Source of the DNA: Christensenella sp. UBA1750
Lineage (GTDB): Bacteria > Bacillota > Clostridia > Christensenellales > UBA1750
DNA: 61,797 bases
Direction: 5' to 3'
NCBI GenBank assembly: GCA_002315655.1
Contig: DCHO01000049.1
Span: 1-61,797, forward strand
The notes beneath the pieces are model-generated. The model was not told where the DNA came from. It saw only the letters and a list, made by a program, of their open reading frames with translations, and did not search any database. Positions within the stretch are counted from its first letter, which is position 1; each line of letters begins with the position of its first letter. Shown piece after piece: positions 30,923 to 61,797 of the stretch. The translations under genes and the position numbers were made by a program.

Positions 30923-31024
30923 AGAGAGGATCCCTTCTCCGGGCACTTTTCGCGCCCAGCTCATTTATTATAGCATAATGAGACGTGTCTGAACGTGAAA
31001 TGTGTGCTAATTGTGGCAAAATAT

Positions 31025-31068
31025 GAACCCATATCAACATTTTGATGGTCGATATGGGTTCGGCTTTT
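31025..31068. terminator. Hairpin downstream of the ECF S-component operon
   Basis: GAACCCATATC...GATATGGGTTC. Confidence 0.6.
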
Positions 31069-31588
31069 ATACAATCAGATTTTCGATCACAACGCGATAG
31101 GCGGGGGCATAGGCCTCATGAAAAGCCGCACTGTGGGAGACCATCGGATAATCCTGCTTTGCATATTCTTTGAGATAAGTAAGCAGGTCTTCTTTGGAGA
31201 AGCAAAAAGGGATTTCCTCAAAGTGGCCTGTCAGAATCTCCAGCTTTTCGACAAAGTTTTCTATGCTGCCTGTGTGCGCCTTGGAGGATTCCACAAAGAT
31301 TGAGTTGAGCGTTTCCAAGGGGAGGATGTTTTCATCCAACGCCTGAAAGTGCACCCGCGCCATGCCGTTTCCGATGGGTTCGATGAAGATGTGGTTGTTC
31401 TCATGGGGCGTTTCGGCGTATTCCTTTCGGATGTAGACCAGGCTCCAAGCTGGGTCTTTCACCAGATGCCCGCCGCCGAACTCGTTCTGATAGAGCAGCT
31501 TCACTGCGTCGGTTGGCTGCATCTGCGGGTAGCGGCGTGCGTGGGTGATGAGGATTTCCAACATTTCAAAAAGCGTTTTGTCGTCCAT
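31067..31588 (-). CDS. Conserved hypothetical protein
   Basis: RYPQMQPTDAVKLLYQNEFGGGHL; 1 bp downstream of the ECF S gene, so co-transcribed. Confidence 0.7.
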   Translation of the reverse strand: MDDKTLFEMLEILITHARRYPQMQPTDAVKLLYQNEFGGGHLVKDPAWSLVYIRKEYAETPHENNHIFIEPIGNGMARVHFQALDENILPLETLNSIFVESSKAHTGSIENFVEKLEILTGHFEEIPFCFSKEDLLTYLKEYAKQDYPMVSHSAAFHEAYAPAYRVVIENLIV

Positions 31589-31589
31589 G

Positions 31590-32132
31590 TTATTCCATCA
31601 GTCTCGCTTTCTTCAAGGCCATGACCAGCAGGGGGATGAGTACGATCTGCACGATGATGCCGGGAATGGCCTCCATGACGGCACCGGCAAGAAAGGCGGA
31701 GAAGGGGAAGGAGCCGGCGGTGAGCCCGGCGATGATGAAGCGTACAAAGCCCCAGATGACGCGCCCTGCAATCATGGCGACAAGGAGAGAAATATAGATG
31801 TTGATATTCTTTTTGGGCAGAGCCTTATACATCAGCCCGGAAATGAGACCGTAGGCCGCCAGCTCAAAGGCCATGGCAAGCCCCACGGGCATGAGCGGCG
31901 GCATCCCAAAGAGCACAAAGCGCAGCAGCGGCGCGATGAAGCCCACGGCCAATCCCCATAAGGGGTCGCAGAGGAAACCGCAGAGCAGCACGGGAATGTG
32001 CATGGGGCAGAGCATGGCGCCGATCTGGGGAATCTGCCCGGTGACAAAGGGCAGAACAAGGGCAAGCGCCAGACAGATGGCGGCGAAAACGAGTTTGCGG
32101 ATGGCAATGCGGGATTTTGTCATTTCAGTCAT
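31590..32132 (-). CDS. ECF transporter S component
   Basis: LALVLPF, PMHIPVLLCG, APLL..LFGMPP, about 6 TM helices. Confidence 0.85.
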   Translation of the reverse strand: MTEMTKSRIAIRKLVFAAICLALALVLPFVTGQIPQIGAMLCPMHIPVLLCGFLCDPLWGLAVGFIAPLLRFVLFGMPPLMPVGLAMAFELAAYGLISGLMYKALPKKNINIYISLLVAMIAGRVIWGFVRFIIAGLTAGSFPFSAFLAGAVMEAIPGIIVQIVLIPLLVMALKKARLME

Positions 32133-32151
32133 GAGAATCTCCTTTTCAATT

Positions 32152-32280
32152 AAAAAAAGAATCGCTTTTCCGATACACGGAAAAACGACACCTTCGTGGT
32201 ATCTATTTCGTTTGGGATTCAGGCTGTTCCTTTGCTCCCTTGCTTCTGCACGGGAAACACCGGCTTCTGCCGATGTTTGC
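32152..32280 (-). ncRNA. Candidate cis-regulatory leader RNA (riboswitch/attenuator) of unknown class
   Basis: Two AGAA-loop hairpins, then mutually exclusive antiterminator and 11-bp terminator with U-tract ahead of the RBS. Confidence 0.6.
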
Positions 32281-32286
32281 AGATAA

Positions 32287-32315
32287 ATATTATCATAAAC
32301 ATAAAGGATTGTCCA
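32287..32315 (-). promoter_or_regulatory. Sigma-A type promoter for the ECF S gene
   Basis: TGGACA-17nt-TAATAT with extended TG on the minus strand. Confidence 0.65.
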
Positions 32316-32513
32316 GCGCTTTTTTGTAAAGCATACAGAAGATTCGGTGTTTATTGAAAAATGAGGATTTCCGAAGTTATGGTATTGCCATTGCGGTGGA
32401 AATGTGGTAACATTTACTTGTAATTAGGTGTTTTATGGATTTTCTGTGAACAGAAAAAGATAATCTGATTCTTTTTCGCCATACACTCCGACTGAGCAAA
32501 GGATGGGATACTG

Positions 32514-33608
32514 ATGATCGAGCTGCAGCATCTGAAAAAACAATATGATTCGGCAACGCCGCTGGAGGATGTGTCCGTCACAATCAATCAGGGCGATGTC
32601 ATTGCGGTGATCGGGCCGTCCGGCACGGGAAAATCCACCCTTCTGCGGTGTCTGAATCTGCTGGAAACGCCAACCTCGGGACACATCCTTGTGGACGGCG
32701 AGGACATCACATCGCCCAGGTGCGATCTGAACCGCGTTCGCAGAAAGCTGGGCATGGTGTTCCAGTCCTTCAATCTCTATGAGCATCTGACCGTGGTGGA
32801 AAACTGTATGCTCGCCCAGACCAAGCTGCTCCATCGTTCGCACCGCAAGGCCTATGAAAAGGCCATGGAGCTGCTGCGCTCGGTTGGCATGGAGAATCAG
32901 GCCATGCGTTATCCCTCCCAGCTCTCCGGTGGGCAGAAGCAGCGCGTTGCGATTGCCAGAACGCTGGCCACAGACCCTGATATTATCCTGTTTGATGAGC
33001 CGACCTCCGCCCTTGACCCGCTGACCGTTGACGAGGTGGAGACGGTCATAGCAAAGCTCTCCCGGCAGGGGCGCACCATGATGATCGTCACGCACAGCAT
33101 GGACTTTGCCCGTCGGGTGTCCAACCGTGTGTTCTACATGGATCAGGGCGGCATTTATGAGGACGGCACGCCGGAGCAGATTTTCGAGCATCCGCAAAAG
33201 GAGCTTACCCGCCGCTTCATCAACAGACTCTCTACGCTGGATATGTTGATCACGGAGGAAAATCACGATCTGGAAGAGGAAATCAACAGAATTCATACCT
33301 TCTGCACCGTAAAGGGGCTGTCTCCCCACCGTATCGTGAATGCGTGCAGTGTGTATGAGGAAACCTTGAGTATCTTCTATAATTATTTTACGAAGGGAAG
33401 CAAAACACTGCATTATGTCTTTGTTTACAATGCAGCGGAGGACTTGCTGACCTGCACGCTCACGCCTTACACCTCTACCAAATGGGAGGAAGTCGCAACC
33501 AAAGTGCTCACTTCTCTGGAAACGAAGCTGATTACCCACTCGATCAAGCGATACTGGGAGGACAAAACCGAAGAGGGCAACGGTTTCTCCAGCGTTTATG
33601 AGATATAA
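32514..33608 (+). CDS. Polar amino acid ABC transporter ATPase (GlnQ-like) with extra C-terminal domain
   Basis: GPSGTGKST, LSGGQKQRVAIAR, FDEPTSALDP, VTHSM; about 120 extra residues after TRRF. Confidence 0.88.
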   Translation: MIELQHLKKQYDSATPLEDVSVTINQGDVIAVIGPSGTGKSTLLRCLNLLETPTSGHILVDGEDITSPRCDLNRVRRKLGMVFQSFNLYEHLTVVENCMLAQTKLLHRSHRKAYEKAMELLRSVGMENQAMRYPSQLSGGQKQRVAIARTLATDPDIILFDEPTSALDPLTVDEVETVIAKLSRQGRTMMIVTHSMDFARRVSNRVFYMDQGGIYEDGTPEQIFEHPQKELTRRFINRLSTLDMLITEENHDLEEEINRIHTFCTVKGLSPHRIVNACSVYEETLSIFYNYFTKGSKTLHYVFVYNAAEDLLTCTLTPYTSTKWEEVATKVLTSLETKLITHSIKRYWEDKTEEGNGFSSVYEI

Positions 33609-60372: not shown

Positions 60373-61797
60373 ATGACATCACTAAAAAAACTTCCGGTAG
60401 GGATTGAGGACTTTTCGGAAATCACGAACGGACGCTATTATTATGTGGATAAGACTGCGTTCATTCGGGATTTGGCGTTAAATCACGACAAGGTCAACCT
60501 GATTACCCGTCCGAGAAGATTCGGCAAAACCCTCAATATGAATATGCTCGAAACCTTCTTTGCCATTGGTGGCGACAAGACGGCTTTTGACGGTCTTGAA
60601 ATCTCAAAGGATAAGGATTTCTGCAATACCTACATGGGAAAATATCCGGTTATCTCTATCAGCTTAAAAGAACTCGACGGTCTTTCTTTTGAGAGCGCTT
60701 TCAAATTGGTAAAAAACTATATTGCTGATGAAGCAGGAAAATTTCTTTTCCTTGCTGATAGTGATAAACTTGATGCAAAAGATAAAGCAGATTTTCAGGC
60801 GTTGTTGCTCAAAGATGAATTCGGAGTGTCCATGATGGACGATGCAGCATTAAAAACAAGCTTGAAATTTCTGTGCGGTCTGCTTTATAAGCATTATGGT
60901 GTCAAACCGATTTTGCTGATAGATGAATACGATGTTCCTTTGGATAAGGCAAATCAGCATGGCTATTATGACGAAATGGTGGATTTGATCCGCAAGCTGT
61001 TCGGAAACGCTCTGAAGACGAATATAGATCTTGAATTTGCGGTTTTGACCGGATGCCTTAGAATTTCCAAAGAGAGTATTTTCACCGGACTTAATAACTT
61101 CTCTGTTTTTCCTGTCAATGAGCCAACATTTTCTGATTATTTCGGCTTTACTGACAAGGAAGTTCGGGATATGCTTGAATATTTCAATTTCACAGACTTG
61201 TATCCCATGTTAAAGGAGTGGTATGACGGTTATCATTTCGGAGATACCGAAATCTATTGCCCGTGGGACATTATCAAATATTGTTCTGATTTGCTGAGAT
61301 TACAGCAGAGAAAAGCGGATGCTACTCTTGAACCCAAAAACTATTGGATCAATACCAGCGAGAATACCGTTATCAGACAGTTGATCGTTCAATCTGATGA
61401 ACAGACAAAAGAAGATATAGAGAAGCTGATTGCGGGCGAATCCTTGCAGAAGGAAATCAATGAATCTCTCACTTACAGCGACATCAATAAGGACGAAACA
61501 AGCATTTGGAGTTTGATGCTTGCAACCGGGTATTTGACCTTTGATTCTTATTCTGGACATACTTATTCCATAAGAATCCCGAATACTGAAATCCGCAGTA
61601 TCTTTGCCGAACAGGTCATGAAATGGTTTAATGACGAAACCGGGAAAGAGCCGGAACGAATTGAGGTACTATGTTCCGCTGTTGAAAATGGAGATGCACA
61701 GGGCTTTGAAAAAAGCTTTTCGGATTATCTTCTTGACACTATCAGCATCCGTGACACGAGTGTACGCAAGTTGAGAAAAGAAAACTTCTATCATGGA
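60373..61797 (+). CDS. AAA-ATPase-like protein (family usually carrying a C-terminal PD-(D/E)XK nuclease), runs off the window end
   Basis: LPVGIEDF, YYVDKT, TRPRRFGKTL, LIDEYDVP, LTGCLRISKESIFTGLNN, WYDGY, NYWINTS; open frame to 61797. Confidence 0.88.
   Translation, partial: MTSLKKLPVGIEDFSEITNGRYYYVDKTAFIRDLALNHDKVNLITRPRRFGKTLNMNMLETFFAIGGDKTAFDGLEISKDKDFCNTYMGKYPVISISLKELDGLSFESAFKLVKNYIADEAGKFLFLADSDKLDAKDKADFQALLLKDEFGVSMMDDAALKTSLKFLCGLLYKHYGVKPILLIDEYDVPLDKANQHGYYDEMVDLIRKLFGNALKTNIDLEFAVLTGCLRISKESIFTGLNNFSVFPVNEPTFSDYFGFTDKEVRDMLEYFNFTDLYPMLKEWYDGYHFGDTEIYCPWDIIKYCSDLLRLQQRKADATLEPKNYWINTSENTVIRQLIVQSDEQTKEDIEKLIAGESLQKEINESLTYSDINKDETSIWSLMLATGYLTFDSYSGHTYSIRIPNTEIRSIFAEQVMKWFNDETGKEPERIEVLCSAVENGDAQGFEKSFSDYLLDTISIRDTSVRKLRKENFYHG

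Follow-up and report, generated by a model that had tools for sequence, protein, structure and literature searches.

What kind of control element precedes the ECF S-component gene on the minus strand of this Christensenella sp. UBA1750 contig, and what reads it? The initial annotation of the window (the whole stretch of 61,797 nucleotides that was analysed) had described a minus-strand promoter, tandem AGAA-capped hairpins, an antiterminator overlapping a terminator, and a ribosome binding site, and all of these are present, within a few bases of where they had been placed. The terminator stem, given as 11 bp, has 12, and the AAAC/GUUU extension that had been drawn into the antiterminator (32213-32183) is possible, with the core of that hairpin formed by a shorter helix. 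In order of transcription, the features of the locus are:

32287-32315, minus strand: sigma-70-type promoter, TGGACA (32315-32310), a 17-nt spacer and a TG-extended TAATAT (32292-32287)
32255-32278, minus strand: HP1, AAACAUCGGC-AGAA-GCCGGUGUUU, a 10-bp hairpin with an AGAA tetraloop and a C-G closing pair
32237-32254, minus strand: HP2, CCCGUGC-AGAA-GCAAGGG, six pairs with one G/A mismatch, C-G closing the AGAA loop
32214-32236, minus strand: linker between HP2 and HP3, variable in sequence and length among relatives
32183-32213, minus strand: HP3, the antiterminator, core GAUACC-ACGAA-GGUGUC (32203-32187), optional AAAC/GUUU extension
32152-32194, minus strand: intrinsic terminator, GUCGUUUUUCCG-UGUAU-CGGAAAAGCGAU (32189-32161), extendable to 32194-32156
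32130-32144, minus strand: ribosome binding site AAGGAG (32144-32139) and start codon ATG (32132-32130)
31590-32132, minus strand: ECF S-component gene, 180 aa, PF12822 (E = 1e-20)
31067-31588, minus strand: U173 gene, 173 aa, starting one nucleotide after the S-component gene
31017-31061, minus strand: terminator-like hairpin and U-run, GAACCCAUAUC...GAUAUGGGUUC then AUAUUUUG, read from sequence

The promoter boxes match the consensus at 9 of 12 positions, with a TG preceding the -10 box. The whole leader folds at -55.7 kcal/mol, compared with -36.6 +/- 4.2 kcal/mol for shuffled sequences (z = -4.6, 0 of 200), and folding energies were also obtained for HP1 (-13.5 kcal/mol, z = -6.6) and the terminator (-18.5 kcal/mol, z = -6.9), the 12 pairs of which include 5 G-C pairs and are followed by a UCU7 tract at 32160-32152 (U7 at 32158-32152); HP2 is weaker at -6.8 kcal/mol. 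The 3' arm of HP3 doubles as the 5' base of the terminator, as can be seen from the overlap of 32203-32187 with 32189-32161 (the terminator being extendable to 32194), and of these two competing structures the terminator is far the stabler, HP3 reaching only -6.3 kcal/mol; the thermodynamic fold never opens the terminator. Attenuation by a leader peptide was rejected, as the sole ATG 5' of the hairpins overlaps the -10 box and is therefore not transcribed.

That no known riboswitch class fits this leader, as the initial annotation had it, was borne out by catalogue searches. Rfam 15 gave no match at the gathering score anywhere in the 61.8 kb window, and when the leader was searched at E <= 10 only chance-level hits to snoRNA, miRNA and sRNA models were returned (E >= 1.2, the best being 1.2); the models for TPP, FMN, THF-I/II, cobalamin, SAM, preQ1, NAD+, HMP-PP, pan, NiCo and T-box elements were among the Rfam 15 models without a match. 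Our literature search found no description of the RNA element, of a function for DUF3842 (the protein family discussed below) or of nickel-pincer salvage. Three known classes were considered individually and rejected. Guanidine-II (RF01068) has no model match at E up to 10, the HP1 and HP2 loops are AGAA and not ACGR, and the gene context is another one; the NiCo riboswitch has no Rfam match, the wrong loops and the wrong gene context. The loops of an ANTAR target RNA are hexanucleotides with A1 and G4, whereas those found here have 4-5 nt (AGAA/ANGAA), and the ANTAR regulator (PF03861) is missing from 21 of 32 motif genomes, the window's own among them; what the leader has in common with ANTAR targets is a hairpin competing with an intrinsic terminator, a shared logic only.

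The leader is nonetheless one of many. We defined a family by two covariance models, R1 and R2, keeping the window leader out of the seed alignment, and the model tested on the window was built only from leaders of other genomes. It scored the window leader at 45.2 bits (E = 6e-7), in an alignment that starts at 32259, such that HP2 of the window corresponds to the first hairpin of the model and HP1 lies outside the scored match. This is the single R1 match in the 2.65-Mb genome, and a scan of the same genome for a second copy, in the form of clustered C-A(N)GAA-G hairpins, returned only chance-level pairs. The cluster scan also encountered an unrelated hairpin array on contig C4. In the class sample, 15 of 400 genomes were positive for R1 with exactly one match each; the R2 search covered 40 selected genomes. 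The motif spans at least 14 family-level groups, and at most one copy was detected per genome.

Structural conservation among these leaders is strong and is accompanied by covariation. In 14 leaders aligned with MAFFT, the four-hairpin fold is 93% paired and 16 of its 25 pairs show compensatory changes, a result reached by 0 of 500 shuffles, and the alternative terminator fold is equally well supported: the terminator helix of the family is 94% paired, with compensatory changes in 4 of 10 pairs. Across 42 copies aligned to the model, 23 of 25 pairs are compensatory and the covariation score is 0.69, versus 0.29 when shuffled. HP1 carries AGAA loops in 21 of the 42 copies and UGAA in 5, and all eight pairs of its helix are compensatory; HP2 carries AGAA in 26 of 42 and UGAA in 9, with a closing C-G in 35 of 36. 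The HP3 loops are AUGAA (17), AGGAA (5), ACGAA (4) or (C)AGAA (5) and its helix is 96% paired, one of the six pairs varying on one side only (U-G, U-A, C-G), consistent with a strand that serves two pairing partners. The loop of the fourth hairpin, UGUAU in the window, is only about half conserved. Relatives differ in their stems, in hairpin count (2 to 4) and in the length of the linker, which is A/U-rich, unalignable and about 8-75 nt long, and in these relatives the motif begins a few nucleotides 3' of a near-consensus -10 box. Among the marks of the family are two or more short NGAA/ANGAA hairpins with a closing C-G pair, and the window has three, HP1 and HP2 being of the form C-AGAA-G and HP3 of the form C-ACGAA-G. 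We therefore regard the leader as very probably a genuine attenuator belonging to an uncatalogued family of Clostridia. The proposal that it is a new riboswitch or a protein-binding attenuator is supported by the conserved, covarying structure, the lack of an Rfam family and the overlap of terminator and antiterminator.

The genes behind the leader give an indication of the signal. Because the terminator-like hairpin follows U173, the regulated unit appears to consist of two genes, the S-component and U173. Homology to the S-component yielded only generic ECF matches and no substrate: the folate-family model TIGR04518 reaches 32.7 bits where its cut-off is 60, and the nearest of the solved S-components matches at E of about 0.02. 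U173 (AlphaFold model, pLDDT 89) matched no Pfam or NCBIfam family and no PDB fold. Most relatives have it as the N-terminal half of a protein of ~350 aa, the other half being a PRK/uridine-kinase-like P-loop kinase; the window's own genome encodes that kinase half separately (G000:C5, about 32230-32808). Neighbours that recur among 80 S-component loci are DUF3842, the kinase fusion, a lipoprotein and a DUF4129 membrane protein.

The set of targets in the family comprises the S-component with U173/kinase, lar genes and nickel importers, the first of which follows the leader in the window. Of the other 14 class-sample genomes with the motif, 12 have the S-component and U173/kinase behind it. 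In G010 and G108 it stands before two small membrane proteins and larE-larB-larC, in G205 before the same membrane pair, short larE/larB-like matches and larC, and at locus L111 a hairpin leader of the same type, recognised by eye, precedes nikM/cbiM. This gene context is not that of a classical vitamin; relatives have the leader in front of lar genes, and a leader of related type precedes a gene for a nickel ECF importer, which makes the status of nickel or of the nickel-pincer cofactor the probable signal.

The gene most consistently associated with the motif encodes DUF3842: 31 of the 32 motif genomes have it, and within the class sample it occurs in 14 of 15 R1-positive genomes compared with 125 of 399 overall (p = 6e-7). 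In 9 of these 14, among them the set's two lar cases, DUF3842 ends about 40 nt 5' of the motif, so that the adjacency is kept when the downstream genes switch from the S-component to lar. Of 80 S-component loci, 41 have DUF3842 upstream of the S gene. At three loci (L003, L015 and L024) HP1 and the stop codon of DUF3842 overlap, and no promoter separates gene and motif. The order regulator gene, attenuator, target genes is that of hutP, and at these three loci DUF3842 would take the regulator's place in it. Dependence points the same way: among genomes that carry the transporter module, the motif is present in 29 of 44 with DUF3842 and in 1 of 12 without (p = 6e-4), a test in which the carriers lacking DUF3842 stem from only about four lineages and so represent few independent events. 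The lone motif genome without DUF3842 is 81% complete, and no copy was detected in the other 11 module carriers without DUF3842, which are 85-100% complete. Two DUF3842-less S-component operons that we read have short, plain leaders with no such hairpins.

Other observations speak against DUF3842 as the reader. It is far commoner than the detected motif (125 versus 15 genomes in the class sample, before the R2 search), and at about ten S-component loci it directly adjoins or overlaps the S gene, leaving no motif in between. At nine of these a binding-protein-like gene runs up to DUF3842, and the tenth, L014, has a promoter followed by a leader that lacks such hairpins; in this arrangement DUF3842 resembles a protein that works with the transporter more than one that regulates it. 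Nickel-importer operons of other Clostridia contain it as a pair with the nickel chaperone CooT, which also fits a nickel-handling role. CooT was considered as a reader of the leader because it adjoins DUF3842 in those Clostridia, but it was missing from 15 of 15 motif genomes tested. The DUF3842 gene lies directly 5' of the attenuator in most relatives but not in the window's own genome, where it is unlinked to the leader (G000:C23:79438-79824, plus strand; PF12953, E = 2e-45), and adjacency would also fit a non-regulatory partner.

DUF3842 is a mini-Rossmann protein of ~135 aa (model pLDDT 93) with an invariant DGQGGxxG at the beta1-alphaA turn, a glycine-rich loop of the nucleotide-binding type. 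It has no sequence match in the PDB, Foldseek retrieved only generic Rossmann domains (TM about 0.5 or lower), and the fold resembles dinucleotide-binding enzyme domains and not any known RNA-binding protein; R63 alone among its basic residues is nearly invariant. We see the case for DUF3842 as the reader of the leader as evenly balanced.

Between the two possibilities raised by the initial annotation, the anatomy of the leader favours an attenuator read by a protein, since the conserved positions are those of the loops and closing C-G pairs, the stems, the linkers and the number of hairpins differ between copies, and the motif is closely tied to the DUF3842 gene. Since the terminator is much stabler than the antiterminator, such an attenuator would be off by default and opened in trans. 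Left to itself, the RNA would form the terminator and transcription would halt before the S-component gene; in the ON state, a trans-acting factor would grip the A(N)GAA loops and hold the antiterminator, allowing RNA polymerase to enter the S-component/U173 operon. The best candidate for this factor is DUF3842, which we infer would bind RNA in one state of a nickel-related ligand and let go in the other; Ni, a pyridine-nucleotide precursor and the nickel-pincer nucleotide are possible ligands, and what the signal is and which way the response runs are conjectural, as is the RNA binding. Taken as a whole, the model of an uncatalogued Clostridia attenuator, off by default and antiterminated by a loop-binding factor with DUF3842 as the best candidate, has in our judgement an even chance of being correct.

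The main rival to a protein-read attenuator is a true riboswitch, in which the A(N)GAA hairpins would themselves sense a nickel-linked ligand (Ni2+, the nickel-pincer nucleotide or a precursor) and DUF3842 would only handle nickel or the cofactor. A compact, covarying RNA that is coupled directly to a terminator and matches nothing in Rfam would suit this reading, guanidine-II offers a precedent for tandem tetraloop hairpins with variable stems and linker, and the targets, nickel import, cofactor synthesis and possibly salvage, make up the coherent set that is the classic pattern of cofactor riboswitches; the occurrence of DUF3842 without a detectable motif and within transporter operons agrees with it as well. 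We nevertheless consider a riboswitch somewhat unlikely, because the conserved nucleotides are found only in terminal loops and closing pairs, with none in junctions or internal loops, because the hairpins range from 2 to 4 in number and roughly 8 to 75 nt in spacing, and because all-purine AGAA loops cannot make Watson-Crick loop-loop pairs in the manner of guanidine-II. Moreover, the conserved antiterminator exists in the ON state only, so that a ligand would have to induce genes of uptake and cofactor synthesis, the reverse of the usual feedback, and a self-sufficient RNA is hard to reconcile with the 11 DUF3842-less module genomes in which the motif was undetected, two of which keep the S-component operon behind plain leaders.

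It is also conceivable, and to our minds improbable, that the attenuator depends on another protein or a small RNA, and that DUF3842 co-occurs with it through a shared set of nickel and nickel-pincer genes. The leader anatomy suits a protein-binding site, DUF3842 has no recognisable RNA-binding features, and no regulator gene adjoins the leader in the window's own genome; however, no other gene is consistently found beside the motif, CooT and ANTAR proteins are ruled out by their absence, and DUF3842 stays at the motif's side when the targets change from the S-component to lar. That the hairpins are no switch at all, and represent a constitutive partial terminator or elements of RNA stability or processing, might be argued from a strong terminator that the thermodynamic fold never opens, but seems highly improbable given that loops and closing pairs are conserved, with covarying stems, over at least 14 family-level groups, that a conserved alternative hairpin shares a strand with the terminator, and that a conserved operon would be silent if the terminator between it and its near-consensus promoter never opened.

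A further speculation concerns the transporter, which may salvage the nickel-pincer cofactor or a precursor of it. A salvage role is suggested by the window's own genome, which encodes a canonical LarA and neither LarB nor LarC. The transporter/kinase module is enriched in genomes without the nickel-insertion enzyme LarC that have LarA-family enzymes, when every protein that passes the Pfam cut-off is counted; the LarA enrichment in module carriers is significant only on that count, the strong matches alone (E < 1e-40) occurring in 16 of 49 carriers versus 6 of 37 (p = 0.13, not significant). The fullest reading joins both ideas: the leader and DUF3842 would form a new ribonucleoprotein switch, with DUF3842 founding a group of nickel- or nickel-pincer-sensing antiterminators, and the S-component, U173 and PRK-like kinase would constitute the first route for nickel-pincer or riboside salvage. 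We think it unlikely that both halves hold together. Were they to do so, they would explain how LarA can be active in gut Clostridia without LarB and LarC. If the attenuator model itself holds, the nickel and nickel-pincer genes of many anaerobic Firmicutes would be under RNA-level control by an element outside Rfam 15 and the literature found, a regulatory layer missed by reconstructions of DNA-based (NikR-type) regulons. DUF3842, present in about 30% of sampled Clostridia, would gain a concrete and testable role, and because the regulon flags an orphan transporter/kinase module, the scavenging of nickel-pincer cofactor from the gut in the way of a vitamin would become a question open to experiment.

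Several known systems share parts of the proposed mechanism. IRP1/aconitase is a protein with an enzyme fold that binds the loops of iron-responsive elements when its metal cofactor is missing and thereby raises metal acquisition; the analogy is functional only, that system being eukaryotic and post-transcriptional and its protein and RNA unrelated to those described here. The NiCo riboswitch (czcD motif) likewise ties an RNA-level response to nickel and cobalt homeostasis, but it is a four-way-junction aptamer that switches on metal exporters, whereas the present leader has a quite different architecture and precedes genes of import, synthesis and possibly salvage. Guanidine-II (mini-ykkC, RF01068) resembles it in its tandem small hairpins, conserved only in the tetraloop and closing C-G and separated by a variable linker; its ACGR loops, however, require loop-loop C-G pairing of which AGAA is incapable, and it controls guanidine export and degradation genes, usually at translation, in contrast to the nickel context and terminator found here.

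In the HutP/hut, PyrR/pyr and TRAP/trp systems of Bacillus, a small ligand-sensing protein binds repeated RNA elements beside a terminator or antiterminator, and hutP and pyrR head their own operons, with the attenuator between the regulator gene and the genes downstream. The HutP/PyrR layout matches the placement of DUF3842 in most relatives, although HutP, PyrR and TRAP have no sequence or fold kinship with DUF3842, and the elements recognised in that class are single-stranded triplet repeats, whereas here they are hairpin loops. Leaders targeted by ANTAR proteins such as EutV, NasR and AmiR contain two hairpins with hexanucleotide loops bearing A1 and G4 (Ramesh et al., 2012; PMC3369931). 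They differ from the present family, which has AGAA tetraloops or A-N-G-A-A pentaloops closed by C-G and up to four hairpins in place of two. In both, tandem hairpins are, or would be, read through loop residues and a closing pair while stems and linker vary, and one hairpin excludes the terminator; the default of ANTAR leaders is termination, and binding of an oligomeric protein brings about antitermination, the same logic that we propose for the leader in the window.

Between a divergent ABC-transporter ATPase gene and the gene for an ECF S-component (hereafter the S gene), reading along the minus strand, the window has a 380-bp gap, within which lies a 183-bp leader. The initial annotation had described tandem hairpins, an antiterminator and a terminator here, and the elements present, together with a fold far more stable than shuffled controls (z = -4.6), indicate that this observation was correct to within a few bases; the AAAC/GUUU extension claimed for the antiterminator is also possible.

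Features of the leader and its neighbours (the last two lines lie outside the window, on other contigs of the same genome)
32315-32287, minus strand: promoter TGGACA, 17-nt spacer, TG-extended TAATAT (sequence)
32278-32255, minus strand: first hairpin, HP1, AAACAUCGGC-AGAA-GCCGGUGUUU (sequence, folding)
32254-32237, minus strand: second hairpin, HP2, CCCGUGC-AGAA-GCAAGGG (sequence, folding)
Between HP2 and HP3, minus strand: 23-nt linker
32203-32187, minus strand: antiterminator hairpin, HP3, GAUACC-ACGAA-GGUGUC, AAAC/GUUU extension possible
32189-32161, minus strand: terminator, 12-bp stem, then U-tract
3' of the U-tract, minus strand: ribosome-binding site AAGGAG, then ATG
31590-32132, minus strand: ECF S-component gene, 180 aa (PF12822, E = 1e-20)
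31067-31588, minus strand: gene for the 173-aa protein U173
G000:C5 about 32230-32808, plus strand: separate, unlinked kinase gene
G000:C50:5072-6421, minus strand: LarA, canonical lactate racemase (E = 3e-122 to 5HUQ, the L. plantarum enzyme)

A scan against Rfam 15 agreed with the earlier failure to match the leader to TPP, FMN, THF, cobalamin, SAM, preQ1, purine, T-box or PyrR-binding-site families, and the NAD+, HMP-PP, pan, guanidine-II and NiCo families were likewise unmatched. At the gathering score the entire window gave no matches, and a permissive scan of the leader alone gave nothing beyond chance level (E of at least 1.2). Full-text searches of openly accessible literature found no published description of the RNA.

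Relatives sharing 56-67% identity with the S-component were collected from 80 loci, almost all in uncultured Clostridia and all in metagenome-assembled genomes; about 30 of these loci have the same leader design immediately upstream of the S gene. A near-consensus promoter is followed by one or two hairpins topped by C-AGAA-G or C-UGAA-G, an unalignable linker of about 8-75 nt, and a hairpin topped by C-A(N)GAA-G whose 3' arm doubles as the base, on the 5' side, of a long terminator, the apical loop of which is often another AGAA. The conserved, covarying structure that the initial annotation had proposed looking for in orthologous leaders was found: in a MAFFT alignment of 14 copies, made with no structure fitted, 93% of cells were paired and compensatory changes occurred in 16 of 25 pairs, covariation reached by none of 500 shuffles, and the terminator fold was equally well supported. 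A covariance model built from this alignment (R1), with the window absent from its seed, scored the window's leader at 45.2 bits (E = 6e-7), the first hairpin of the model aligning to HP2 and HP1 falling outside the scored match. A model-based alignment of 42 rows (40 genuine copies plus two chance matches on the reverse strand) raised the compensatory pairs to 23 of 25, a count biased toward the model's own structure, whereas the MAFFT-based counts are free of such bias. Closing C-G pairs are nearly invariant in these rows; the HP1 and HP2 loops of the family are AGAA or UGAA, those of HP3 are AUGAA, AGGAA, ACGAA or AGAA, and the terminator loop, UGUAU in the window, is kept in no more than about half of them. 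Seven loci (L005, L010, L013, L021, L043, L049 and L079) have a shorter leader before the S gene, with only a C-AYGAA-G hairpin, continuing into a hairpin whose loop is of the UCAAG type, and lacking a U-tract; in L021, CUCCC could pair with the GGGAG Shine-Dalgarno sequence, which hints at a translational version.

The 2.65-Mb genome (93% complete) holds exactly one R1 copy, as does each of the 15 genomes with an R1 match in a class sample of 400. A weak match at 60667-60774 on the minus strand of the window (18.6 bits, E = 0.33), not recovered genome-wide at E <= 10, is probably due to chance, and the gap between pth-like and mfd-like genes (G000:C4:8050-8330) contains an array of some eight palindromic hairpins, all different and each bracketed by GTGAAAT/ATTTCAC, that is unrelated to the AGAA motif. 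The motif precedes an S-component orthologue in 12 of the 14 other R1-positive genomes, where the next gene encodes a protein of about 350 aa, its N-terminal half homologous to U173 and its C-terminal half a P-loop kinase of the PRK/uridine-kinase family. These halves are split in the window's own genome, with U173 after the S gene and the kinase on contig C5. The U173 family has invariant D, K, Q, FG, H, E, R, HS, P and Y residues, and its confident AlphaFold model matched no PDB fold. The motif is also found before nickel-pincer cofactor (lar) genes, from which a pair of small membrane proteins (about 137 and 111 aa) separates it in three genomes (L103 223-952, L104 267-1003, L153 622-1350); in one such genome, G205, this pair is accompanied by short matches resembling LarE and LarB and by LarC. 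The two membrane proteins matched nothing in Pfam or NCBIfam and might constitute a so far undescribed transporter for nickel or a precursor. By eye, and unscored by the models, a similar hairpin leader in L111 has a DUF3842-cooT pair on one side and, on the other, a nikM/cbiM-type gene whose product begins with HIPDG.

A gene tightly linked to the motif encodes DUF3842 (PF12953); neighbour clustering placed it upstream of the S gene at 41 of the 80 loci. By statistics that, here and below, ignore phylogeny, it is present in single copy in 14 of 15 R1-positive genomes versus 125 of 399 class-sample genomes (p = 6e-7), the exception being the 81%-complete G301, and in 44 of 56 genomes carrying the U173 module (56 of 400 overall) versus 81 of 343 non-carriers (p = 4e-15). 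In nine of these 14 R1-positive genomes, including both lar-operon cases of that set, the gene stops about 40 nt short of the motif, so the pair stays constant while the regulated genes change; in L003, L015 and L024 the stop codon of DUF3842 overlaps the first hairpin and no promoter intervenes. When 40 module carriers were searched with a broader covariance model (R2), 17 of the 29 with DUF3842 had the motif and none of the 11 without; 16 of these 17 matches are placed precisely before the S gene, so that even weak R2 scores are validated. With both models combined, the motif occurs in 29 of 44 DUF3842-positive and one of 12 DUF3842-negative carriers (p = 6e-4, the latter representing about four lineages), and in the two DUF3842-less genomes where the S-component operon persists, the leaders have no such hairpins. 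In G073, two C-AUGAA-G hairpins and a terminator precede a DUF3842-cooT pair (L119 1375-1433, plus strand), suggesting that DUF3842 may itself be under motif control in some genomes. Other recurrent neighbours upstream of the S gene are a lipoprotein of about 318 aa with no Pfam match (about 19 of 80 loci) and a DUF4129-like membrane protein of about 378 aa (about 18 of 80).

An AlphaFold2 model of DUF3842 (pLDDT 93, 35-sequence alignment) shows a five-stranded Rossmann-like domain in which DGQGGxxG, at the first beta-alpha turn, and a Cys are invariant. Foldseek matched only NAD(P)-binding Rossmann domains, at TM about 0.5 or lower, making a nucleotide-like ligand plausible; it matched no RNA-binding protein, no relative was found among PDB sequences, and the predicted fold neither supports nor excludes RNA binding.

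In the LarA of this genome, the His residues of catalysis, the Lys that tethers NPN and the His that serves as Ni ligand align as conserved, and tblastn of this 93%-complete genome found neither LarB nor LarC, only an isolated LarE-like gene (C7:1102-1899). LarC occurs in 120 of 399 class genomes but seven of 56 module carriers (p = 0.0015). Among LarC-less genomes, 31 of 49 module carriers versus 10 of 37 controls have a LarA-family match that passes the Pfam cut-off (p = 0.001); for strong matches only, the difference (16 of 49 versus six of 37) is not significant. Three module carriers (G090, G164, G244) gave no LarA-family match at all. Vitamin salvage usually combines an S-component with a trapping kinase. 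LarA without LarB and LarC, the class pattern and this gene arrangement make cofactor uptake a testable idea, and it is conceivable, if speculative and rather doubtful, that the transporter takes up the nickel-pincer cofactor, either as such or in the form of a riboside precursor.

Computed energies (-18.5 kcal/mol for the terminator versus -6.3 for the antiterminator hairpin alone) indicate that RNA without a helper should terminate. In the hairpins of the read-through conformation, selection acts on loops and closing pairs, while stems, linker and even hairpin number vary freely; a multimeric RNA-binding protein leaves such a signature, a ligand pocket does not. The reading we therefore prefer is an attenuator that is off by default and is opened by a protein, for which DUF3842 is the best candidate. 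Unassisted, the leader would form the terminator and transcription would stop; DUF3842 would be expected to bind the RNA while its nickel-related ligand is scarce, permitting read-through and raising uptake, synthesis and possibly salvage genes together, a direction of response and ligand identity that we infer.

Three observations count against DUF3842 as the reader: it occurs far more widely than the motif can be detected, in about 10 loci it directly adjoins or overlaps the S gene and the motif is missing from between them, and in other genomes it is paired with CooT within nickel-importer operons. All three would also fit a nickel- or cofactor-handling protein, which is why two alternatives are retained. 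Direct ligand sensing by a riboswitch seems unlikely, given where conservation falls, and an attenuator read by some other factor appears less probable still. CooT, absent from all 15 motif genomes tested for it, and ANTAR proteins, absent from 21 of 32, were rejected as readers. Nine of the abutting loci, from higher-GC Clostridia (L009, L020, L029, L030, L032, L036, L053, L056 and L077), share a frame with a binding-protein-like C-terminus running up to DUF3842.

The guanidine-II riboswitch relies on loop-loop pairs, which the purine-only AGAA loops of this leader cannot form, arguing against a riboswitch of that kind. Similar in design are the targets of ANTAR regulators, multimeric RNA-binding proteins that leave the same signature: there, as in this leader, loops and closing pairs are conserved while stems and linker vary (PMC3369931).
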